Shown piece after piece: positions 3,291 through 22,988 of a stretch of DNA of 22,990 nt. Made by a program: the position numbers and the translations under genes. This DNA comes from Candidatus Bilamarchaeaceae archaeon (GTDB lineage Archaea; Micrarchaeota; Micrarchaeia; Anstonellales; Bilamarchaeaceae), in NCBI GenBank assembly GCA_038870635.1, contig JAVZJR010000007.1, positions 1 through 22,990 on the forward strand, in the 5' to 3' direction. The notes under the pieces are model-generated. The model was not told where the DNA came from. It made no database searches and was given only the letters and a program-made list of their open reading frames with translations. Each line of letters starts with the position of its first letter. The first letter of the stretch is position 1.

Positions 3291-3397
3291 GCTCTTAATA
3301 ATGGCTACAAACCTACTTATTCCAATGTACGCGCGTCTGCGCGTGAGGAAAAAACCATTAGGTGGTTTGTTCTCTCTCCGTTATACGGAGAGTAAGT

Positions 3398-3440
3398 AGA
3401 GTGGAAGGGAAATAGCAGATGTGAGGAATAGTGAGTTTGG
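3398..3440 (+). other. 5' arm of the 23S pre-rRNA processing stem (pairs with 6349-6388)
   Basis: GGAAGGGAAATAGCAGATGTG...GTGAGTTTGG is complementary to CCAAACTCGC...CACATTCTGCTTTTTTCCCTTCC downstream of the 23S. Confidence 0.8.
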
Positions 3441-3454
3441 GTTCTAGAAATCTA

Positions 3455-6348
3455 GATATTCATACCGTCTAGTGGATGCCTAGGCTTACGCCCACGCGGC
3501 CACGCGGCAAGCTGCGATAATCTCCGGGTAGCCGCATGCAGGCTTTGATCCGGAGGATTGGCGGTGTACTTTCCGGCTAACTGGGAAGTACGAAAACTCC
3601 CCGAAATGAAGCGTCTTAGTAGGGGAAGGAAAAGAAATCAATCGAGATCCGGTTAGTAACACGAGTGAAAGCCGGACAGACCGTCCTGAATACTCTATGG
3701 TAACATAGAGTAGATGTGGTGAGGTTAGTACCATCCATTTTCCTACCAGAAGTCAGCTGGAACGCTGCGCCATAGCGGGTGAAAGCCCCGTATGGAAAAG
3801 AAAATGGAGGGAACTCGAAGAGTAGTGTCCTCTTGATAGGGGGCATGAAGATGGGGGTATCAACCTCCAAGTCTAAATATGGGGCGTAAGACCGATAGCG
3901 CATTTAGTAGCGCGAGCGAAAGGTGAAAAGAACCGGGGGACCGGTGTGAAAAGACCTGAAACTAGACGGTTACAGCAGGACAAGGCACAAAAGGGTAGGA
4001 CTGCAGAAGTGAATGCTGGTAACAGCAGGAACGATGCAGTTTAACCAGTGTCTTGTCTTTCTTCTCGAAGCAAGAGCCAGGGAGTTTATGTGCGTGGCGA
4101 GACGAAAGTCGAAGGGAAACCAAGTGCCCGCAATACCGCAAGGTATGAGGGGCGTTGTGGTAATTCGCGACTAGTCACTCACATAAGACCCGAAGCCGTT
4201 GTGATCTACGCCCGAGCAGGGCGAAGCCAGCTTGACAGCTGGTGGAGGCCCGCAACTAGTGGTGGTATATTCCCCTTAGGTGACTTGGGTGTAGGGGTGA
4301 TAGTCCTGTCGAACACGGCAATAGCGAGTTCCTCCCAAAATGTGTCTCAGCACAGCGTCCTTGGAGTGAGATACAAGGGTAGAGCACTGATCAGACAGAG
4401 CGGCTCCGAAAGGGGTCACTGTCTTTTCAAACTCCGAATCTTGTATCCACGAAGAAGAGGGCAGTTGGGTTCACGGGGTAAGCTTGTGGACCTATACGGG
4501 ATTGACCGTACGTTGGGTTAAGGACCCTAAATGCTGGTTAAGTGCGAACTGCAAAGAAGTCTCTATTCAGAGACAGCCGGGAGGTAGGCTTAGAAGCAGC
4601 CATCCTTTAAACAACGCGTAATAGCGGACCGGCCGAGAATGCAGACTTTGAAGATTACCGGGGCTAAACCAGCTTCCGATACCCAACCTAGGCGAAAGCC
4701 TATAGAGTAGGGAGGCGAACGGATGGCGCAGAAGTAGGTTCGTGAGAACCTATGGAGCCTTCTGTTATGAATATCCTGGTGTTAGTAACAGCAATATCTA
4801 GGTGAGAATCCTAGACACCTTATAGAGCAAGGTTTCCTCAGCAACGTTCGTCAGCTGAGGGTTAGGCGATCCTAAGCCTCATGGTAATTCCTCTGAGGCG
4901 AAATTAGGGAAGCCGGTTAATATTCCGGCCCCACAGAGGTAGGTGCCGCAAGGCATGCCAACTTTCGGACGCCTTTGGATAGGTGAAGCGGCTGCGGCCG
5001 TCTGAGGAGAGTAACTTCGCGGAGTCTCATTATGAGGAGAAGCGAATGAAACTCCAAGGGGAAACTTCATCAAATCCAGGGGCCCATGAAAACGAGGTTG
5101 GAACGATCCTCTGTGCTCGTACCAAGAACCAGTACAGGTGCTCTAGCTGAAAAGGCTAAGGTGTGTCGGGAGAACCCGGGTAAGGGAATTCGGCATATTG
5201 GCCCCGTATCTTCGGTAGAAGGGGTGCCTTCGCATGCGCAATGCGGAGGTCTCAGTAACAAGGGGGGAGCGACTGTTTACCAAAAACACAGGTCACCGCA
5301 AAGTTGAAAAGCCTAGTATGGTGGCCGACGCCTGCTCACTGCCAGTACCTGAAAACGGGGTTCAACCTGGAGAAGGGCTGGTAAAGAGCGGGGGTAACTC
5401 TGACCCTCTTAAGGTAGCGTAATACCTCGCCGCTTAATTGGCGGCTTGCATGAATGGCGTAACGACTCCCCCACTGTCCCTACCTGGGACCTGGTGAACT
5501 CACTATCCGGTGAAGATGCCGGAGACTCCCAGTGGGAAACGAAGACTCCATGGAGCTTTACCGCAGTCTGGTGTTGTGGTACGAGTTATACTACCGAGAG
5601 TAAGTGGGAGCCGTCGAACCGTTGCTTCCGGGTAACGGGGAGGCGAAAGTGTAACACCACTTAGTATGACTTGTATTGCTTACTCGAAAGAGGACAGCGC
5701 CAGGTGGGCGGTTCGGCTGGGGCGGTACGCCCTCGATAAGGAAACAAGGGCGCCCAATGCTCTGCTCATCCCGGTCAGAAATCGGGAGTAGAGGGTGAAA
5801 GACAAATGCAGGGCTGACTGTATCCCTAAAAGCGTGGGATGCAGAGACGAAAGTCGGGCTTAGCGAACATAGATACCTTATTGATGAGGGTTCTATCTGT
5901 CAGACAAGCTACCCTGGAGGTAACAGGCTCGTCGCGGGCGAGAGTACACATCGACCCCGCGGTTTGGTACATCGCTGTCGGCTTGGGACATCCTGGTGGG
6001 GCAGGACCCGCCAAGGGTTGGGTTGTTCATCCATTAAAGTCCCACATGAGCTGGGTTCAGTACGTCGCGAGACAGTACGGTAGTATCTACTGGGAGCGTT
6101 TGCCTCTTGAGAGGAAGGATCTCTGAGTACGAGAGGAACGGAGATCCGGCGCCTCTAGTCTACCGGTTGTGAAATACGCACTGCCGGGCAGCCACGCGCC
6201 AAGTGATAAGACCTGAAAGCATCTAAGGTCGAAGCACTTCTCAAGACGAGGAGGCATGAACCGCGGATAGCAGATCCGTTTGATAGGACCGGAGTGTAAG
6301 CGGTTAGCGAAAGCGAGCCGTTCAGCTTGCGGTTACTAAAGGTTCATT
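3455..6348 (+). rRNA. rrl: 23S ribosomal RNA, archaeal, not linked to 16S or 5S (ends approximate)
   Basis: Conserved blocks GCAAGCTGCGATAA, GGTAGGCTTAGAAGCAGCCATC, CTCTTAAGGTAGCG, TAACAGGCT, GAGCTGGGTTCAG and the sarcin-ricin loop AGTACGAGAGGAAC. About 2.9 kb, GC-rich against an AT-rich background. Confidence 0.98.
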
Positions 6349-6388
6349 CCAAACTCGCGCACATTCTGCTTTTTTCCCTTCCCATTCT
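6349..6388 (+). other. 3' arm of the 23S pre-rRNA processing stem
   Basis: Inverted repeat of 3398-3440, followed by a T-rich tract. Confidence 0.8.
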
Positions 6389-6442
6389 CTAATTTTTTAA
6401 ATATTTATGAATGAGAATATTAGTTGTATGCACTATTTTGAT

Positions 6443-12850: not shown

Positions 12851-14938
12851 TTATTTAAGCATTTCTGCTATTGGACAGACTTCGTAATAAGCGACAGGTT
12901 CTTTTATTTTTGCGTTTACAGAAAATGCAGTTGAGAATGTTGAATCCCCGTAGTTTGCAGAAGGTGTGAATTCTATTACCGCGTCATAGAGCTTAAGCTC
13001 AGCGCAATCTATTGTCTTGTTATTTTTAAGACAGGATGACGCATCGTTTTTATCTATTAAGTCAATTGTTTTGTTTTTTTCTTTTAATGTTTGGATTAGT
13101 TTTTCTGCGCACGTACTCATAGCTTTTGTTTCAGTTGCTGAAGCAAGTTGATTGTCTATAACCACTGCTACTGTTTTCTGGTTATTAAATTCATCATAAA
13201 ATTCATTGAATGTTGCATCCGCGGAAGTTTCGTCCATAAGGAAAAATAAAGCACCTGCGGCAGATGCCAATCCGGCCACTGAAATTAAAAACAAGCCTAA
13301 GAAAACATAGACTATCTTTTTTGAGCTATTCAATTTAAGCAATGTTAAGAATACCAAAAAGACCATTGCTAGGATAGAGAAAAATAATAGTAAGACAAAT
13401 CCAGTAAGAAAAGTACTTTTATTTTCAACAAGTCCTGAAGGTGTCGCAACGTTTGTAGTAGTGGTGGCGTATGCAAGCCATGAGTTTGCCTTTATTGCAA
13501 AATTTCTCATTGGAGTGGTGGTGGTTGTTAACGGAGATGCTTCTATATTTTCCACCATTTGCGCCGTAGCATTTGCTAATATGCGGTATTTTTCTTTTAA
13601 TTCATTTGCTTTGTCAGTACTGATTCCTGGAGCCATCTCTTTATCTAATTTTTGTAATTCATTCTTATAGTCTTCATATTTTTTCTGGTCGTCTCCTGAT
13701 AAATCGTGGCTACCAATTTTGAATATATTTGCTATACTCTGTTTTTTTGCTTCTCCTATTTCATTATAAAGTGAATAGATCTCAGCAGTTTTGTTTTCTA
13801 AAGATGTTAAAACTTTTTCGTACTGTGCTATCTCATCATCTAAACCTGTAAAATTAGCTGAATCTATTTTGCTTCTTATACTTTCACGCAGCGCTATTGC
13901 CTCTTCTTTTTTTATGTTTAGATTGGTATTAGCTATTAATAGATATGCTTGGGCGGCTTCATTCTCTATTAATTTGCCTTTTTTCTCGAGTGGCTCAAAA
14001 ATTTGATTGTATTTCTCTGCTGTTTTTTTGTTTTCATAAAAAGTTACTCTTTCTTCTGTGTTTTTTAAGATTTTCTGAACTGTTGAGTTAAGATTAGCAA
14101 GAGGTTGAACTTTTGTATATAAAGCGTCTACTCTATCTTTAAGCTTCATTAAGCTTCCTTCTTGGTCTAAGTCTAGTGGGGGGCATATGGCGTAACATTT
14201 GTTTTTGCAAGCAAGTTTGTCAGCACTATCATTTATTTTTGGATATCTAAAAATACTGCTTTCTATTTTATCTGCATAATTCTTTAGTACAGGTATTGTA
14301 CTTTTCATATATGCTAAAGTATCAACTACATTGTCTTTCGTTAAATTTTCTAAGCGCTTGTTATAATTCATTATTATTTCATCTGTTCCATAACTCGAAT
14401 AAGAAAAATCTTTTAGTGGTTGTATGAGTATTTCATAACTGGACCAATGAAATTGTTCATGACCATATGAATAAAGTAGCATTGCGTTAATTTTGCAGCT
14501 TTCATCATCATGGCACCATAACTTTTGGGGCGTGTTGTTTATGTATATTTCTATTTTTTTGTCAGTAAAAAGAGCCTGTCTGCATGCATATTCTTCTTGG
14601 TTTTTGTATGTTCCATATCCGTCATTTCTACTCTTATCATAAGTCGCGATAAGCTCTTTTATTTGTGAGATGTCTGAATCAGAAGGATAGAACTCTTTTT
14701 TGTAATACCACTCTAATACTTCTTCTATTTCTTCTTTGTTCCTTAAAATCTCACCTTTTTTTAGAAGGAATGTTTCAGAGTTATTTATATAAACTATCGA
14801 ATAATCATCGCTAGCTCTCGTAAAATTCTTATAAATTACTGAATTTGTATCCTCACCGTTATAAAAATAATCAGATACGGAAAATGAGAACACAAACCCA
14901 ATAAGAACTAAAAACATAAGCAACGAATACGGTCGCAT
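12851..14938 (-). CDS. Large hypothetical surface glycoprotein (signal peptide, Cys-containing and coiled-coil ectodomain, 2 TM helices, C-terminal 4-Cys domain)
   Basis: N-terminal MRPYSLLMFLVLIGFVFS, many NxS/T sequons, a heptad-rich middle region, and two long hydrophobic helices at about aa 510-568. Confidence 0.8.
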   Translation of the reverse strand: MRPYSLLMFLVLIGFVFSFSVSDYFYNGEDTNSVIYKNFTRASDDYSIVYINNSETFLLKKGEILRNKEEIEEVLEWYYKKEFYPSDSDISQIKELIATYDKSRNDGYGTYKNQEEYACRQALFTDKKIEIYINNTPQKLWCHDDESCKINAMLLYSYGHEQFHWSSYEILIQPLKDFSYSSYGTDEIIMNYNKRLENLTKDNVVDTLAYMKSTIPVLKNYADKIESSIFRYPKINDSADKLACKNKCYAICPPLDLDQEGSLMKLKDRVDALYTKVQPLANLNSTVQKILKNTEERVTFYENKKTAEKYNQIFEPLEKKGKLIENEAAQAYLLIANTNLNIKKEEAIALRESIRSKIDSANFTGLDDEIAQYEKVLTSLENKTAEIYSLYNEIGEAKKQSIANIFKIGSHDLSGDDQKKYEDYKNELQKLDKEMAPGISTDKANELKEKYRILANATAQMVENIEASPLTTTTTPMRNFAIKANSWLAYATTTTNVATPSGLVENKSTFLTGFVLLLFFSILAMVFLVFLTLLKLNSSKKIVYVFLGLFLISVAGLASAAGALFFLMDETSADATFNEFYDEFNNQKTVAVVIDNQLASATETKAMSTCAEKLIQTLKEKNKTIDLIDKNDASSCLKNNKTIDCAELKLYDAVIEFTPSANYGDSTFSTAFSVNAKIKEPVAYYEVCPIAEMLK

Positions 14939-14991: not shown

Positions 14992-16719
14992 ATGGAGTTC
15001 GACGATTTACTTATTACAACGGGCGTTGATGCTCTAGTAAAGCTCGTAAAACAAAAAGGACGAATAGAGTTAAGCGAGTGTGCAACATCTCTTAACATTC
15101 AACCAGATACTTTAGAAGAATGGGCAAGAATACTGGAAGAGGAAGGAATAATAAAAGTGGAGTACAAACTAACAAAAGTATATCTTGTTTGGGTTCAACC
15201 TACAGAAGAACAAATAAAAGAAGAAAGTGAAACAATCGAAGCCGAACGACTCAAACTTCTAAAAGAATTAGAGAAAACAAAGAGCGAAATTCCATTAGAA
15301 TTAAAAAAAATGGATGATTTACGTGATTCTTTTAAAGAAGTGTACTCTAAATTTTCTGCTGATATAAAAAAATTGGAAGAAAAAGTTTCACCTTTTTTGT
15401 CCCTAAAAGAATCTATTGAAAAAAGGAGAAATGAAAACGAGGACAAGTTTAAAAATCTGCAAAACAATTTAACAGATATTGCCTCCAACTTGGAAACAAT
15501 TTCAAAGGAACTAAGAGAAGTAGAGAGTAGTGTTGAAAAAAGTAAAAGCGAGGAATTGTTTACGAAGATAAAGAAAAAACAAGATGAAATTTACCAAATG
15601 ATGAGTGAGCTAAAGGAACTTCGAAGGTCTATTGATGTTAACAAAGCAGTTAAAGCCGAGCTACCATCTGCGTATGAGTTAAAAAAGAAATTTGATGCAA
15701 TTTCAAAAGATTTTGCAGATTTAAAAAACCGTAATTCTGCTTTGCGCGAGGACCTAATTAGTTTAAAGGAAGGAAAGGAGATTGTGGATAATGTTGGTGG
15801 CGCATTGAAAGATTACGAGAAAACAACTGCTCAGTTGCAGAAGGAATTATCTGAATTAACAAAAGAAGCAGATGCATTATTCGAGCGAGTAAAAACTATA
15901 GATGAAAAAGTGCGCGAGAGCTTCGATACAATAAATAGGTTCTCTGATTCTCTGAATGTGGCCAAAGGAATAGTTTCAAGATTTCCAAATCAGGAAAAGC
16001 TTCATGTTGAACAAGAGAGCATTCTAAAGAAAGAGATTGAAATAGAACAAAAAATTGATGCGCTTAAAAAGATAGTTGAATTGGCCGGCGGTGCTCAGAT
16101 TTCTGCTCAGGAAGCACATGACCTAGCGGAGAAAATAGAAGCTAAAATAAATGAGCTCAAAGAAGAATCTATTGTTCTTTCTCAATCTCTAGAAGAAGAA
16201 AAAAATCGTTATTTTACATTTCAACAAGTAAGAGAAAGAGTACTGCCCGCTCTTCGTTCTTACCAAAACGAGATTATTAAACTCAAAGGAGAGTTAGAAA
16301 AGATTAAAGATTCTTTAGATTTTGAAAGCGAAAATTTTGAAAAACAAATTAATAATATAGAAACAAAAATTGGAAAAGAAGAATTAGCAGAACTTTTCAA
16401 AATTACTAAAGAAATCGAAGATAAGAAAAAATTATTAGTTCAAATAGAGAATAATTTTGAAGAATTAAGTGAAAGAGCAGATAATCTAAACAAACGTCTT
16501 TCTCTTTTAACTAATCAAGCAAAGATTTTAGCAGTGCGCGCTGCGCCACCTCAAGAAGAAGCTAAAAAAGAAGAAAAAAGAGGGGAAGAGACAGTCGATT
16601 ATTTCAAAAGAGAACTTCAGTTAACAAAAGAGGAGGAAAGAGAGTTTGCAAAAAAGCGCGAAGAACTTAAAAAACTTATAGAAAAATTGTGGGAAGAGGA
16701 AAAACCTAAAAAGAAATAG
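14992..16719 (+). CDS. Hypothetical protein: N-terminal winged-HTH-like domain plus ~500-aa coiled coil
   Basis: TGVDALVKLVKQKGRIELSECATSLNIQPDTLEEWARILEEEGIIKVEY follows a wHTH pattern; E/K/L-rich heptads run to the C-terminus; no Walker A motif. Confidence 0.75.
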   Translation: MEFDDLLITTGVDALVKLVKQKGRIELSECATSLNIQPDTLEEWARILEEEGIIKVEYKLTKVYLVWVQPTEEQIKEESETIEAERLKLLKELEKTKSEIPLELKKMDDLRDSFKEVYSKFSADIKKLEEKVSPFLSLKESIEKRRNENEDKFKNLQNNLTDIASNLETISKELREVESSVEKSKSEELFTKIKKKQDEIYQMMSELKELRRSIDVNKAVKAELPSAYELKKKFDAISKDFADLKNRNSALREDLISLKEGKEIVDNVGGALKDYEKTTAQLQKELSELTKEADALFERVKTIDEKVRESFDTINRFSDSLNVAKGIVSRFPNQEKLHVEQESILKKEIEIEQKIDALKKIVELAGGAQISAQEAHDLAEKIEAKINELKEESIVLSQSLEEEKNRYFTFQQVRERVLPALRSYQNEIIKLKGELEKIKDSLDFESENFEKQINNIETKIGKEELAELFKITKEIEDKKKLLVQIENNFEELSERADNLNKRLSLLTNQAKILAVRAAPPQEEAKKEEKRGEETVDYFKRELQLTKEEEREFAKKREELKKLIEKLWEEEKPKKK

Positions 16720-16734
16720 TTCTTGAGTGATCCT

Positions 16735-17724
16735 ATGAATTTTTTAGAGCTATGTAAAGATGACTTAAGAGATGTAGAAAAAGAAATGATGTTATTAGTA
16801 GAAAAAAGAGAAAAGCGCACTTTTGGTATTATTCCTTCTTTTCTAGAACGAGGTGGCAAAAGAATGCGCCCTCTTCTTTTACTTCTTTTTTTTCACGCCT
16901 TTAACGGTAAGGACCTAAAAAATGCTAAGAGAATGGCCGCTTTAATAGAAATGTTTCATAATTTTACTCTGATTCACGATGATATAGAAGATAATTCTCG
17001 GTATAGAAGAGGCAAACCAACATTACATATTGAATATGGCATTCCGATGGCGCTTAATAGTGGTGATGCATTGTACACTCTTGTTTTAAAAGAGATAAGT
17101 GAATTAGATATGGAACCATCTCGGGTTGTTAGTCTGATGCGCCTTTGTTCTAATGCTTTTCTTCAAGTAGTAGAAGGACAAGGAATTGAAATATCGTGGG
17201 AGCAAGAAAACAGTTTCGAAATAAAAGAAAAAGACTATTATCATATGATATCAAAAAAAACTGGTGCTTTAATTGCTCTTTCTTGCGAGGTAGGTGCGTA
17301 TCTTGCTGGTGCAACCGAGGAAGAACAGCAAGTTGCAAGGAAATTTGGTGAAAATATCGGTGTTGCTTTTCAGATTTGCGACGATATTTTAAATTTAACT
17401 GCGCAGTTTGAGAAATATAAAAAAGAAATAGGCGGGGATATAACTGAGGGAAAGAGAACGCTGATGGTAATAAAAACACTTGAAATAGCCGATGAAAAGG
17501 ATAGAGAAGTATTAAAAGAGATTATTTCAAGTCGTACAACAAATCAAAAAAGAATAGAGGAAGCAATAAGTATAATAAAAAAGTACGGGGCATTGGAATA
17601 TGCTGCTGAAAAAGCCCGTTTGCTTGTCGAACAAGCACAACAACTTTTGATTATTTTAAAGCCCTCTCCTTATAAAACAGCTCTTCTTCAAATTGCAGAT
17701 TATGTTTTAACAAGGGAAAATTAG
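16735..17724 (+). CDS. idsA: Polyprenyl diphosphate synthase, probably geranylgeranyl diphosphate synthase
   Basis: GGKRMRP, first Asp-rich motif HNFTLIHDDIED..RRG with Phe five residues upstream (short-chain type), GQ, KKTGAL, AFQICDD and GDITEGKRT. ATG 16735 follows SD-like GAGTGA. Confidence 0.9.
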   Translation: MNFLELCKDDLRDVEKEMMLLVEKREKRTFGIIPSFLERGGKRMRPLLLLLFFHAFNGKDLKNAKRMAALIEMFHNFTLIHDDIEDNSRYRRGKPTLHIEYGIPMALNSGDALYTLVLKEISELDMEPSRVVSLMRLCSNAFLQVVEGQGIEISWEQENSFEIKEKDYYHMISKKTGALIALSCEVGAYLAGATEEEQQVARKFGENIGVAFQICDDILNLTAQFEKYKKEIGGDITEGKRTLMVIKTLEIADEKDREVLKEIISSRTTNQKRIEEAISIIKKYGALEYAAEKARLLVEQAQQLLIILKPSPYKTALLQIADYVLTREN

Positions 17725-18543: not shown

Positions 18544-19569
18544 CTAATTGTAATTATAATTAAAAAAATTGTCTATTAATTTTTTTAATTCTTTAGAGTC
18601 TTTTTCTTGGTTTTTATTTGTCGGTTGTAGAGTTTCCATTGTCATTTTATAGATAGTTTCTGTTAATTCATTAATTTTTATAATTTTTGCTATGCCCTCT
18701 CTTTTAATTTGTTTTATAGTTGTATCCAAGCCAGAGAAAAAGTTTTTTTCGTTAGAAAACAAAACAAGATGATTATTAAAATTTTCATTTTTTAACTTAA
18801 AAGAAAAAATACGGTTAATAGTATTATATGCTTCATATACAAAGTAAATTTGATTTTTTTGTTTTAAATTTTCTATTGCCATAAGAGTTTTTATTTTTTG
18901 TTTTACATCTTCCCCTTCTTTTATATGTATCATGTTATTCATTAAGTTGCTTATCTCAGCTATAGAAAATAAACCACTTTTTGCGTAGGAAATGAGAATT
19001 AAATTTGCTACTTCTTCAGTTTCATTTAAATTATTTATAATTAGTGGTCTAAAGTAAAAATTTTGGTTATTATTGAGTTTTATTATGTTTTTAATTTGGT
19101 CTACTACTTCGATATTAGGTTTGTTTAGTTTAACAAAGTCAGGTAAGTAGTTTTTGAGTAATCTTTTTTCTTCTTTTATTATTTCCTCTTTAAAAGCTTT
19201 GCATTCTAACATAGTCGTATTTTCTTTAGTTTTGTTGAACACGGCTAATATAGTTTGTGCTTTTACTTTTCCTCCCAAAAGAAAGTCTAAATTTTTTATG
19301 TTGTACTCAAGCATTTGCATTAACGGAAGGTAATCGTCATCACTTTTTACAAGAGGTAACAGAATTCTAAGTGAAGAGGCTATTTTACCATTTTTTATTG
19401 CTTCGTTTCGTTCGAACTCATCAGGAGTAAGCAATTTTGCATTAAATTTTGTTTTTGGAGTTATTAACTTTGCTCTCGTGTTTATCAAAGTTAAAATTTT
19501 AGCTTCTGTTTTATTGTTTATACAATTTAAAGTAAACCCCACGATTATCTTTTTTGGTTGACACTCCAT
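18544..19569 (-). CDS. Hypothetical protein (Asn/Lys/Ile-rich, no recognisable motif)
   Basis: 341-codon ORF in very AT-rich DNA, with a TATA-like TTTAAAAA about 25 nt upstream on the minus strand. Confidence 0.7.
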   Translation of the reverse strand: MECQPKKIIVGFTLNCINNKTEAKILTLINTRAKLITPKTKFNAKLLTPDEFERNEAIKNGKIASSLRILLPLVKSDDDYLPLMQMLEYNIKNLDFLLGGKVKAQTILAVFNKTKENTTMLECKAFKEEIIKEEKRLLKNYLPDFVKLNKPNIEVVDQIKNIIKLNNNQNFYFRPLIINNLNETEEVANLILISYAKSGLFSIAEISNLMNNMIHIKEGEDVKQKIKTLMAIENLKQKNQIYFVYEAYNTINRIFSFKLKNENFNNHLVLFSNEKNFFSGLDTTIKQIKREGIAKIIKINELTETIYKMTMETLQPTNKNQEKDSKELKKLIDNFFNYNYN

Positions 19570-20371: not shown

Positions 20372-20460
20372 TGAGTATTACTATAAAATATCCTTACCTT
20401 TTATGGGGTTATTTTTTATTTAACTTGCCCCATGCGTGGAAATCTATGCTTGTAGATTTG

Positions 20461-20511
20461 ACTCACGCTTCAAGAGAATGGTGCATTAAGTTAGCCAATT
20501 CCGACAACGCG
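20461..20511 (+). other. 5' arm of the 16S pre-rRNA processing stem with BHB motif
   Basis: ACTCACGCTTCA-AGAG-AAT-GGTGCATTAAG pairs with CTTAATGCAC-AT-TTCT-AAA-TGAAGCGTGAGT (22141-22171): a 4-bp helix AGAG/UUCU flanked by 3-nt bulges AAU and AAA. ACAACGCG also pairs with TGCGTTGT. Confidence 0.88.
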
Positions 20512-21010
20512 ATAGTCTCCTATATATTCGCTTTGCAGCGATCAACTCCAGTTGATCCTGCTGGAGGGTACTGCTATCAGACTTCGATTAAGCCATGCAA
20601 GTCTACGGTTGGACTTCCAACCGTGGCGGACGGCTGAGTAACACGTAGTCAACTTACCCTAAGGACGGGGATAACCTCGGGAAACTGAGGATAACCCCCG
20701 ATAGATGATGGAAACTGGAATGTTCCATCATTTAAAAAGCTGGTGAATTGGAGCCAGACTGCCTTAGGATAGGACTGCGGGGGATTAGGTAGTTGGTGAG
20801 GTAACGGCCCACCAAGCCGATAATCCCTAGGGGCCATGGGAGTGGTGGCCCCCAGAAGGGCACTGAGACAAGGGCCCTAGTCCTACGGGATGCAGCAGGC
20901 GCGAAACCTTTACAATGCGCGAAAGCGTGATAGGGGAAGTCTGAGTGGCGGAAACTTAGTTTCCGTCTTTTGCTGAGTGTAAATAGCTCGGCGAATAAGG
21001 GTGTGGGCAA

Positions 21011-21052
21011 ACACGCCCTTCGAGCATTTGACAGTCGTAGGGAGTGGCCTAT
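21011..21052 (+). other. 42-nt BHB intron in 16S rRNA (helix 18, after ~E. coli 510)
   Basis: Interrupts the conserved GGGCAA|GACTGGTG. Central helix GGGC(21005-08)/GCCU(21047-50), bulges AA^A and AU^G, paired intron arms; excision restores the consensus. Confidence 0.9.
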
Positions 21053-21152
21053 GACTGGTGGCAGCCGCCGCGGTAACACCAGCGCCTCAAGTGGTACCCA
21101 CGAATATTGGGCCTAAAGCGTCCGTAGCCGGTCTAGTCCGTCTTCTGTGAAA

Positions 21153-21191
21153 AGATGTTGCCTCGCTTTATTGCGAGACTTCGTCTCACAA
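21153..21191 (+). other. 39-nt BHB intron in 16S rRNA (helix 21, after ~E. coli 609)
   Basis: Interrupts the conserved GTGAAA|T. Central helix GUGA(21147-50)/UCAC(21186-89), bulges AA^A and AA^U, intron-side helix GAUG/CGUC and inner hairpin CUCGC/GCGAG. Confidence 0.88.
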
Positions 21192-21355
21192 TGTTGGGGC
21201 TTAACCCTAACGCGTGCAGAAGATACCACTAGACTCGGGAGCGGGGGAGGACAGGGGTACACCCGGGGTAGGGGTAAAATCCGTTGATCCTGGGTGGACC
21301 ACCAGTGGCGAAGGCGCCTGTCCAAAACGCGTCCGACGGTGAGGGACGAAAGCTG

Positions 21356-21389
<34 letters not shown>

Positions 21390-21491
21390 CAGCTGTAAAT
21401 TATGTAGACTTCGGTGTTACGCTAGAGTAATCTAGCGTAGTGCTGTAGCGTAGGTGTTAAGTCTACCGCCTGGGGAGTACGATCGCAAGAT

Positions 21492-21527
<36 letters not shown>

Positions 21528-21663
21528 CCGTGGATGCTACGGTTCAATTGGATACAACGCCGGGAACATCACCAAGGGCGACGGCAGTATGAAGGCCAGA
21601 CTAAAGATCTTGCCTGACGAGCCGAGAGGTATTGCATGGCCATCGTCAGCTCGTGGCGTGAAC

Positions 21664-21695
<32 letters not shown>

Positions 21696-21965
21696 ATGCC
21701 CTTAGTTGCTAATCTCTTCTCCGGAAGGGATGCACTCTAGGGGGACTGCCCGCGTTAAGTGGGAGGAAGGAGTGGGCGACGGTAGGTCAGTATGGTCCGA
21801 AACCCTTGGGCTACACGCGGCATACAATGGGCGGAACAGCGGGCTGCGACTCCGAGAGGAGGAGCTAATCCCATAAATCCGCTCTTAGTTCGGATTGAGG
21901 GTTGCAACTCACCCTCATGAAGCTGGAATGGCTAGTAATCGCGGGTCATCATCCCGCGGTGAATG

Positions 21966-21997
<32 letters not shown>

Positions 21998-22122
21998 GTC
22001 ACCCAAATGTGTTTTCGGTGAGGCTTCGGTTATTGCCGAATTCGAACCGATGATACGTGAGGGGGGCTAAGTCGTAACAAGGTATCCGTAGGGGAACCTG
22101 CGGATAGATCACCTCCAAAATT

Positions 22123-22171
22123 TGCGTTGTGCGAGGATTGCTTAATGCACATTTCTAAATGAAGCGTGAGT
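22123..22171 (+). other. 3' arm of the 16S pre-rRNA processing stem
   Basis: Inverted repeat of 20461-20511. Confidence 0.88.
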
Positions 22172-22175
22172 TCAT

Positions 22176-22988
22176 TTATCTCTTAAGCGTAATAAGAACT
22201 TTCTTTTCTGCTTTTCCTTTTAATTTAAGTATGTTTAGAATAAGTTTTACCTCTCTTCTCCTTTTCTTTATTAGTCTATACTTTTCTTTTTCATTCATTT
22301 GTGTTTTTTGTATTTTCTTAACAGCTGCTGCATAATGTTTTTTTATGTTATTTATATCTTCATCTGAATAGGAGTAAGTTTTATTTTCTCTTAATTTTAA
22401 CATAGCTTCTTCTAAATCACTTTTAGCCACTCTTAATATTAGCTTAAGATAAGATAATGATATGGGTTTATTTTTATTTAATTTATAGAATAAAGTACAA
22501 CTTTCATATTCTCTTAATTGTTTACACCATTTACAGAAATCGTCTATATTAGCAGAGCTATTGTTTTTTATGAAATTTTTTAATGTATTTATAAAATAAT
22601 GCTCTTTTGCTCTAAAGAAATCATATGCTGCACATTTTATCTGTAATCCGTGTGCATTAATTTTCTCTAACTTTCCTGCAACTTCTAAAATAAGTGCAAT
22701 ATATGGTAATGATAACTCTTCTCCTTTATCCTTAGATTTTATCTTCTCTCTGTTATTCTTTATCCATTCAAATGCTTCATCTTCATTACTAAAATCTAAC
22801 TTATCAATAGTTTCCTTATTGAAGAGATAATTATCATATGCTCCACATTTTATCTGTAATCCGTGTGCATTAATTTTCTCTAACTTTCCTGCAACTTCTA
22901 AAATAAGTGCAATATATGGTAATGATAACTCTTCTCCTTTATCCTTAGATTTTATCTTCTCTCTGTTATTCTTTATCCATTCAAATGC
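22176..22988 (-). CDS. 3' part of a larger hypothetical protein with 71-aa tandem repeats (starts beyond the window)
   Basis: Manual translation shows that the frame of ORF 22176-22430 stays open to the window edge: ...AFEWIKNNREKIKSKDKGEELSLPYIALILEVAGKLEKINAHGLQIKC(G/A)AYD... twice, then a basic C-terminus. Confidence 0.8.
   Translation of the reverse strand, partial: AFEWIKNNREKIKSKDKGEELSLPYIALILEVAGKLEKINAHGLQIKCGAYDNYLFNKETIDKLDFSNEDEAFEWIKNNREKIKSKDKGEELSLPYIALILEVAGKLEKINAHGLQIKCAAYDFFRAKEHYFINTLKNFIKNNSSANIDDFCKWCKQLREYESCTLFYKLNKNKPISLSYLKLILRVAKSDLEEAMLKLRENKTYSYSDEDINNIKKHYAAAVKKIQKTQMNEKEKYRLIKKRRREVKLILNILKLKGKAEKKVLITLKR

Follow-up and report, generated by a model that had tools for sequence, protein, structure and literature searches.

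A 39-nt insert after position 609 of a Micrarchaeota 16S rRNA gene is very probably an ORF-less archaeal BHB intron with a relaxed junction

Short hairpin (HP) introns of less than 50 nt with BHB junctions are described from the 16S rRNA genes of Thermoproteales, Desulfurococcales and Caldiarchaeum; the accessible part of that survey (Jay and Inskeep 2015) gives 13 16S intron loci, none of them at position 609, and calls V1-V9 intron-free (PMC4496867). For the Micrarchaeota, 16S introns of ARMAN-2 and Mia14 have been published (PMC8784108, PMC5498576), ARM-1 carries a 522-bp ORF-bearing 16S insert at 1093 (PMC8784108), and Nawrocki et al. report group I introns in Micrarchaeota rRNA, with BHB introns co-occurring in some archaeal host genes (PMC6125680). 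In the available portions of two of these papers the Micrarchaeota 16S inserts are mentioned and their splicing is not demonstrated (PMC8784108, PMC5498576). The epsilon2 EndA is described as cleaving hBHBh' and hBH pre-tRNAs (PMC3239211, PMC3488258, PMC12397907), and the relaxed substrate tested with the ARMAN-2 enzyme is, in the accessible text, an hBH/BHL pre-tRNA (PMC3239211, PMC12397907).

Here we describe a 39-nt insert in the 16S rRNA gene of Candidatus Bilamarchaeaceae archaeon, analysed within a stretch of 22,990 nucleotides of contig JAVZJR010000007.1 (hereafter the window). Like the HP introns as characterized in the accessible text, the insert is ORF-less, shorter than 50 nt, folded as a hairpin with BHB junctions, located in 16S and patchily distributed, and the window's relatives use loci that on a rough mapping fall near positions 722, 781, 908, 919 and 1093 of the HP paper (PMC4496867). 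Unlike those introns, it lies inside the V4 amplicon, has no adjacent homing endonuclease intron for co-conversion, and possesses a competing 3' hairpin, none being described for HP introns in the same text (PMC4496867). The HP hosts have an (alpha-beta)2 EndA, whereas the host of the window is a member of the Micrarchaeota with an epsilon2 EndA. With Ca. Micrarchaeum acidiphilum ARMAN-2 (4FZ2/9W2K) it shares the EndA type, including all eight named residues, and, so far as the available sources go, a small intron with a relaxed motif; the ARMAN-2 introns, however, reside in tRNA and the tested motif is without an intron-side helix, whereas the 609 insert resides in 16S and is without an exon-side helix. 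The published Micrarchaeota 16S inserts come from the same phylum and host gene, but those of ARM-1 and ARMAN-2 encode proteins whereas the 609 insert is 39 nt long and non-coding, and the remaining ones are group I introns or are described without a position in the accessible text; Figure 1 of PMC6125680 might list an SSU BHB site. Neither an intron at 609 nor a competing 3' hairpin was reported in the literature searched, which covered few subscription papers; the class of intron is known and the site is, within that scope, unreported.

The 16S gene of the window is a stand-alone gene of Micrarchaeota type, with the 23S gene separate at 3448-6356. It measures 1573 nt including two inserts, against 1491 nt in the insert-free congener G003, and alignment with the latter delimits inserts of 42 and 39 nt, the first lying 100 nt upstream of the second (Table 1). 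Mapping to K-12 rrsH and placement of the 515F and 806R primers, with primer sequences and V4 limits as we take them to be, confirmed the original prediction that the 39-nt insert sits in helix 21 within the V4 amplicon. The 515F-806R product is 332 bp in the window, 293 bp in G003 and 292 bp in E. coli. Since rRNA genes are difficult to assemble and the window ends near a contig end carrying a local duplication, an assembly artefact or chimera was considered. It was rejected and has a negligible probability: DNA contigs of two runs carry the identical insert (a single contig of run X1 reads through it and shows 0 differences across 21105-21377, and contigs of run X2 cover it, again with 0 differences, X1 or X2 possibly being the source sample), and ten other distinct sequences have diverged homologues at the same base.

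Table 1. Features of the 16S rRNA region of the window; positions count from its first letter
Feature	Position	Strand	Remarks
Pre-16S processing stem, 5' arm	20444..20513	+	pairs with about 22121-22192; predicted duplex -69.4 kcal/mol
Archaeal 16S rRNA gene	20545..22117	+	Rfam RF01959 full length, 1396 bits
First intron, 42 nt	21011..21052	+	about E. coli 499, upstream of the 515F site; unrelated family
515F-806R amplicon, 332 bp	21058..21389	+	515F site with 1 mismatch, 806R site with none
5' BHB strand	21147..21153	+	central helix GUGA (exon) and bulge AAA; predicted cut after 21152; invariant in 9/9 homologues
39-nt intron (splicing inferred)	21153..21191	+	after E. coli A609, helix 21 internal loop; mapped to K-12 rrsH
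Intron hairpin	21154..21185	+	intron-side helix 21154-57/21182-85, inner helix 21162-66/21173-77, 6-nt loop
Alternative 3'-terminal hairpin	21171..21191	+	21171-79 with 21183-91, 8/9 pairs, UUC loop; excludes BHB
3' BHB strand	21186..21192	+	central helix UCAC and bulge AAU; predicted cut after 21191
Upper hairpin of helix 21	21193..21211	+	directly 3' of the AAU bulge; fold prediction
Lower helix-21 stem, 3' strand	21216..21224	+	competitor of BHB for 21147-21148; fold prediction
Pre-16S processing stem, 3' arm	22121..22192	+	same predicted duplex as 20444-20513

The junctions have the geometry of a BHB rRNA intron. Four Watson-Crick pairs form the central helix (GUGA 21147-50 with UCAC 21186-89), two 3-nt bulges flank it (AAA 21151-53 and AAU 21190-92), and a 4-bp intron-side helix follows (GAUG with CGUC); each of these elements lies exactly where it had been predicted. 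Cutting after the second base of each bulge (21152 and 21191) excises 39 nt and restores GUGAAAU, as proposed at the outset, the joined sequence CUGUGAAA-UGUUGG reproducing the junction present in G003. The single exon-side U-G pair of the original prediction fared differently: U21146-G21193 is the one pair possible there, and its predicted probability is 0.00 in all 12 folds. As the exon-side helix is absent, the junction falls outside the strict hBHBh' substrates of alpha4 and alpha2 EndA, and under a published classification, of which part is accessible, it belongs to class HBh' (10.64898/2026.10.13.758758); it is in this form that the relaxed BHB reading was borne out. The geometry arose in 42 of 200,000 shuffles of the insert, counting four Watson-Crick central pairs plus at least four intron-side pairs in any of three equivalent registers, and the fold of the insert has a z-score of -3.95, with none of 200 shuffles equally stable.

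Comparative evidence points the same way. Across nine homologues the intron-side helix is 100% paired, two of its four pairs having changed on both sides, so that at least one flanking helix (the intron-side h', 4 bp) is present and covarying. On the nine-row alignment the BHB helices together are 96% paired, and their covariation score was reached by 1 of 500 shuffles; an earlier run with seven sequences was not significant (44-55 of 500 shuffles), and the result became significant with nine. The outer central pair is G-A in three of the nine homologues.

The insertion is precise, the gene is otherwise intact, and empty alleles exist in relatives. Among the 176 genomes of the order, 67 have site 609 empty with the exact junction, many of the others having an unassembled 16S gene or having been missed by the pattern. 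Nine pattern matches were obtained, of which five were rejected as chance matches outside rRNA; the occupied sites are those of G000 (the window's genome), G005, G006 and G014. Phylum-wide, 9 of 401 genomes matched, including G084, G140, G143, G326 and G034, and three metagenome contigs are also occupied at 609. Nine of the inserts at this site constitute one family of 39-44 nt, the homologue from G326 belonging to another order; G140 and G143 carry a second family of 81-82 nt at the same base, and the twelfth insert, 105 nt in G034, fits one base upstream. All 11 inserts at 609, from both families, have 3-4 central, 4-12 intron-side and 0-1 exon-side pairs. Collection-wide pattern scans were too loose, the matches listed being mostly insert-free bacterial 16S genes; among these matches 224 sites were anchored and 12 flagged, and five were true inserts (L116, L189, L239, L243 and L257, with L116 and L257 dropped as redundant rows), so that the scan gives no frequency. 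The lone match in a viral contig (L316), a single 17-mer without the rest of the intron, was judged a chance match and rejected. No second copy of the 39-nt intron was found in G000, nor copies elsewhere in the 176 order genomes by the exact pattern.

Local alignment separates the family clearly from everything around it. Close homologues at site 609 give z-scores of 10.9-13.0, and no clear sequence kinship to inserts at other sites emerged, the best z-scores of 183 comparisons being 4.2 and 3.8. Against the first intron, taken one base to the right, the value is z = -1.3. The two also differ in their distribution among relatives: G001 has the first intron and lacks the 609 intron, and G005 has the 609 intron with a different family at the first-intron site. 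The original prediction that the two inserts are unrelated is thus upheld; of its further claim of an independent gain, the existence of two separate intron families stands, but neither intron is new to this species. Within the genus the 609 intron occurs in G000, G005, G006 and L243 and is absent from G001 and G003, and the exon tree of the genus (computed from 26 rows with two redundant ones removed and with the root on G025 and G028) reads (((G000,G001),G003),G005),(G006,L243) with supports of 83-100. One gain with two losses, or a gain, a loss and a regain by transfer, would be equally short histories of three events each; in the first of them an old intron of the genus would have been lost in G001 and G003. 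Outside the loop the intron is identical in G000 and G005, the exons being 93.5% alike, an identity that would fit either constraint or recent exchange. The 609 intron is older than the window's species, because it is common to G005, G006 and L243 and has homologues up to another order.

Inserts abound in the rRNA genes of this lineage. Of 41 genomes searched for 16S genes, 36 gave a match, and 37 loci from 33 genomes were analysed, fragments shorter than about 300 nt from G002, G009, G017 and G023 being left out. These loci contain 118 inserts of at least 12 nt, with 0 in G003, 10 in G006, 15 in G005 and 27 in G014; in 23S the counts are 0 in the window, 2 in G001, 9 in G006, 10 in G005 and 37 in G014. 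BHB geometry, defined as at least three central pairs plus a 2-bp intron-side helix in the excision register, fits 76 of the 106 inserts of at least 25 nt, against 9.4 +/- 3.1 in 200 rounds of shuffling, and the strict test with all four central pairs fits 60 of the 106, against 1.5 +/- 1.2; the inserts are related and some misses are alignment errors, making this comparison descriptive rather than a p-value. Relaxed motifs are the rule in this lineage. The weak exon side of the 609 intron is not special to it, since 40 of the 76 inserts with BHB geometry likewise show no more than one exon-side pair.

Several relatives show further features of their inserts. In G014, a member of the same family, nearly all of the 27 inserts in 16S (L034) and 37 in 23S (G014:C58) are 30-55 nt long. 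A family of short introns with a shared central hairpin occupies many sites in G005, G006, G001 and L243 (L039, L010, L035 and L047), at about 330, 354, 621, 729, 866, 1226 and 1514, and at each site its 3' central strand fits the local exon; two of its members stand in tandem at 1226 in G005. This multi-site occurrence points to a spread of the family within the 16S gene. At window positions 21444-21453 a DNA contig of run X2 has an extra insert near E. coli 866, matching in its letters the intron that G005 has at this site; therefore, intron-richer relatives co-occur in that sample. The 23S gene of the closest congener (G001:C6, L327) contains a 700-nt insert with a LAGLIDADG_1 ORF, which is absent from the 23S gene of the window.

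Mobile elements of other kinds were considered for the 39-nt insert and rejected. A mobile homing-endonuclease intron is disfavoured because the 39 nt encode no ORF and G000 has no LAGLIDADG profile match: PF14528 and PF00961 were not found in this 89.55% complete genome, and LAGLIDADG_1 occurs in one of five genomes, inside the G001 23S insert, and not in G000. For a group I or group II intron the insert is too short, and the Rfam matches in the window are the two rRNAs only. As a possible mobility helper, reverse transcriptase (RVT_1) was looked for and found in none of five genomes, nor in G000. A non-autonomous IS200/IS605-like element, which we take to bear two terminal hairpins, was dismissed since no Y1 transposase (PF01797) was detected in G000 (one of five genomes has a match) and no further copies turned up in G000 or, by the exact pattern, at other places in the 176 order genomes.

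The enzymes required for splicing are encoded in the G000 genome (859 kb in 8 contigs, 89.55% complete). Its EndA (G000:C1) is a protein of 389 aa that matches the ARMAN-2 EndA 4FZ2 from end to end with an E value of 7e-127, the next best being 1e-19. It has the three-unit architecture of about 390 aa expected of an epsilon2 enzyme, with the Tyr-His-Lys triad Y233/H248/K279, the ASL pair Y157/K158 and also K225, R272 and W386 all kept; their ARMAN-2 equivalents, as given in the accessible text, are Y160, K161, K228, Y236, H251, R275, K282 and W384 (PMC12397907). The check suggested in the original prediction, to find and classify endA, thus yielded an intact epsilon2-type enzyme. An RtcB gene is present as well, and full-length EndA homologues of 54-72% identity exist in all five other intron-bearing genomes tested. 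The original prediction had invoked an epsilon2 EndA tolerant of relaxed motifs; the enzyme type is present, but the known relaxed test substrate is hBH/BHL and not HBh', and since the ARMAN-2 EndA was tried in the accessible papers on such pre-tRNAs, cleavage of the HBh' geometry would be an extrapolation by analogy. G000 also encodes a second, EndA-like protein of 173 aa (G000:C2, L002:1249-1770; PF01974, 37 bits), which aligns at the catalytic Tyr and has no clear catalytic His, and weak second EndA-like matches occur in G006 and G326. ARAGORN intron calls in the tRNAs of G000 were too unreliable for motif classing and were dropped.

We conclude that the insert is very probably a protein-spliced archaeal BHB intron without an ORF. 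From its sequence and geometry, its presence and absence among relatives, the conserved pairing and the presence of both enzymes, we infer its cleavage, its ligation and their timing as follows. The insert would fold into a hairpin while the 16S precursor is being made, and its last bases would pair with the exon GUGA; the resulting BHB would be of the 3-4-3 kind, with 4 bp in its intron-side helix and a true exon-side helix lacking. The homodimeric epsilon2 EndA would then cut after the second base of each bulge, and RtcB would join the exons, restoring E. coli positions 604-610. A time window is predicted for these steps, in which the BHB would dominate for roughly the next 25 nt of transcription, up to the emergence of the 3' strand of helix 21; from then on helix 21 would be favoured by 1-2.4 kcal/mol, and the BHB, stacked on the stem of lower helix 21, would persist as a minor state.

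This timing comes from fold predictions of RNA alone, without proteins, according to which the BHB competes with mature helix 21. In folds up to 21216 the BHB is dominant, with probabilities of 0.97-0.99 for three central pairs and 0.6 for the fourth. Addition of 21217-21224, from the 3' strand of helix 21, lets native helix 21 take over 21147-48 and lowers the BHB probability from 0.97-0.99 to 0.02-0.05 at 37 C; once helix 21 is complete, the share of the BHB state amounts to 2-5% at 37 C and 6-24% at 60 C, native helix 21 being favoured by 2.4 kcal/mol and 1.0-1.9 kcal/mol, respectively. When the BHB is forced, seven pairs of the lower stem persist and stack on its central helix, and the upper helix-21 hairpin follows the AAU bulge. 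The predictions suggest that cutting would happen during transcription or from the minor BHB state.

RNA contigs bear on the joined product. The only one to span the site, from run X8 (335 nt, depth 143), skips both inserts exactly, 42 nt and 39 nt, with 98 nt on the shorter side of the 609 joint. It has nine other letters in 335 and matches none of five relatives at the six positions compared, so it derives from a sister taxon, which may simply lack the intron; the joint would be compatible with splicing. No RNA contig of runs X8 and X11 covers the intron interior, and the RNA of run X11, consisting of short pieces only, has no joint at site 609.

The insert can also adopt a second fold. All nine homologues contain an alternative hairpin that always starts 21 nt before the intron end and comprises 7-9 pairs, built with a copy of the 5' BHB strand that lies inside the intron and has no bulge. 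Its significance per homologue, with the intron interior shuffled, ranges from p = 0.0006 to 0.018; in the window's intron alone, fixing the inner helix removes the significance (p = 0.08). On the nine-row alignment the alternative helix is 91% paired, three of its nine pairs have changed on both sides, and its covariation of 0.34, which rests on about four independent lineages, was reached by none of 500 shuffles. Opposite exon G604 the intron has C, A or U; this base is complementary to its internal partner (G, U or A) in every homologue, yet mismatches G604 in three of the nine. In the five members from outside the genus the energies of the two folds differ by 0-3 kcal/mol, and four of the nine homologues favour the two-hairpin fold by 2-3 kcal/mol; members of the window's genus instead prefer the BHB, by 6.6-12.7 kcal/mol, and have a 5' hairpin that is lost or weak. 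The same two-hairpin layout recurs in relatives at E. coli sites 793, 908, 1094 and 1494. It is not general, 15 of 79 short introns reaching p <= 0.05. Refolding of a circular intron to a splinted dumbbell, which holds for four of the nine homologues and not for the window's intron, was discarded. Template switching at quasi-palindromes mimics compensatory change, and the alternative hairpin may be non-adaptive, a product of hairpin-templated mutation.

The second fold enters both of the remaining alternatives to regular splicing. It is very unlikely that the insert is a retained expansion segment, staying in mature 16S as one or more side hairpins of helix 21 with the BHB as a relic. In the minimum-energy fold of the full region helix 21 indeed keeps its native form and the insert projects as a side arm, and formation of the conserved alternative hairpin would mask the 3' central strand and release exon bases 604-607; the eukaryotic expansion segment ES6S sits at helix 21, which we count in favour of retention. 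Yet the insert is present all-or-none at one base with near-constant length, its BHB pairing has been kept through compensatory intron-side changes, the second family at the same base has BHB pairing as well, and the same geometry is repeated at dozens of other sites, core ones included; retention of inserts at so many core positions of the relatives' rRNA is implausible. Sakai et al., in the accessible text, state the splicing of the ARM-1 16S insert as uncertain, which also speaks for retention (PMC8784108). Conditional or partial splicing, a two-state switch in which EndA acts only on the BHB state and some ribosomes keep the insert, is likewise improbable. Two mutually exclusive folds that both covary across nine homologues, their near-equal energies (within 0-3 kcal/mol) in five of these, and the recurrence of the layout at 793, 908, 1094 and 1494 are what such a switch would predict; in the window's genus, however, the BHB leads by the margin given above and the 5' hairpin is lost or weak, the alternative hairpin falls short of significance in the window alone, and inserts would hardly be retained at sites such as 908 and 1494, which we take to be core 16S positions. 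Splicing as a BHB intron accordingly remains the preferred reading.

Whether selection maintains the second fold is a separate matter. That it is selected and functional, the one feature of this locus that might be new, is a tentative suggestion that we consider doubtful. We are equally guarded about the idea that the 609 insert represents a subfamily of Micrarchaeota BHB mini-introns, so far undescribed, that have two states and a selected second fold; such a subfamily may occupy 16S site 609 and, by layout, also 793, 908, 1094 and 1494, and in each member the 3' strand may pair with a bulge-less duplicate of the 5' strand inside the intron, forming a hairpin of 8-9 bp that extends to the 3' splice site. 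If true, the second fold could release the exon after cleavage and shape the excised circle; alternatively, it could throttle splicing, or help to re-target introns without homing endonuclease or reverse transcriptase.

The 609 intron has consequences beyond this locus. A 515F-806R product of 332 bp instead of 293 bp may cause such archaea to be filtered from amplicon data, and relatives with many V4 inserts would give still longer products or have lost primer sites. As a compact test of whether epsilon2 EndA cuts an HBh' motif when a native helix of the rRNA competes with it, the intron bears on the order of splicing and ribosome assembly. The spread of ORF-less archaeal introns to new sites becomes an approachable question in this lineage because it combines 0-27 introns per 16S gene, no reverse transcriptase in five genomes and a conserved second fold.

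Some further observations were made in the window. Around the first intron (21002-21060) the intron is able to pair with the exon across both junctions, which would give two strong hairpins that rival its own BHB. The unlinked 16S and 23S genes lie 14 kb from each other, each within its own long processing stem; that of 23S is formed by 3386-3439 with 6351-6399, and that of 16S has a BHB-like interruption near 20473-20480. The contig end (22700-22990) carries a near-perfect direct repeat of about 150 nt, which may represent a repeat protein gene or an edge effect of the assembly. Three long ORFs have no Pfam family above the cut-off: 12851-14938 on the minus strand (695 aa), 14992-16719 on the plus strand (575 aa) and 18544-19569 on the minus strand (341 aa). 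A mevalonate/isoprenoid set of this DPANN archaeon, at 223-2337 and 16723-17724, comprises diphosphomevalonate decarboxylase-like, GHMP kinase and polyprenyl synthase genes.
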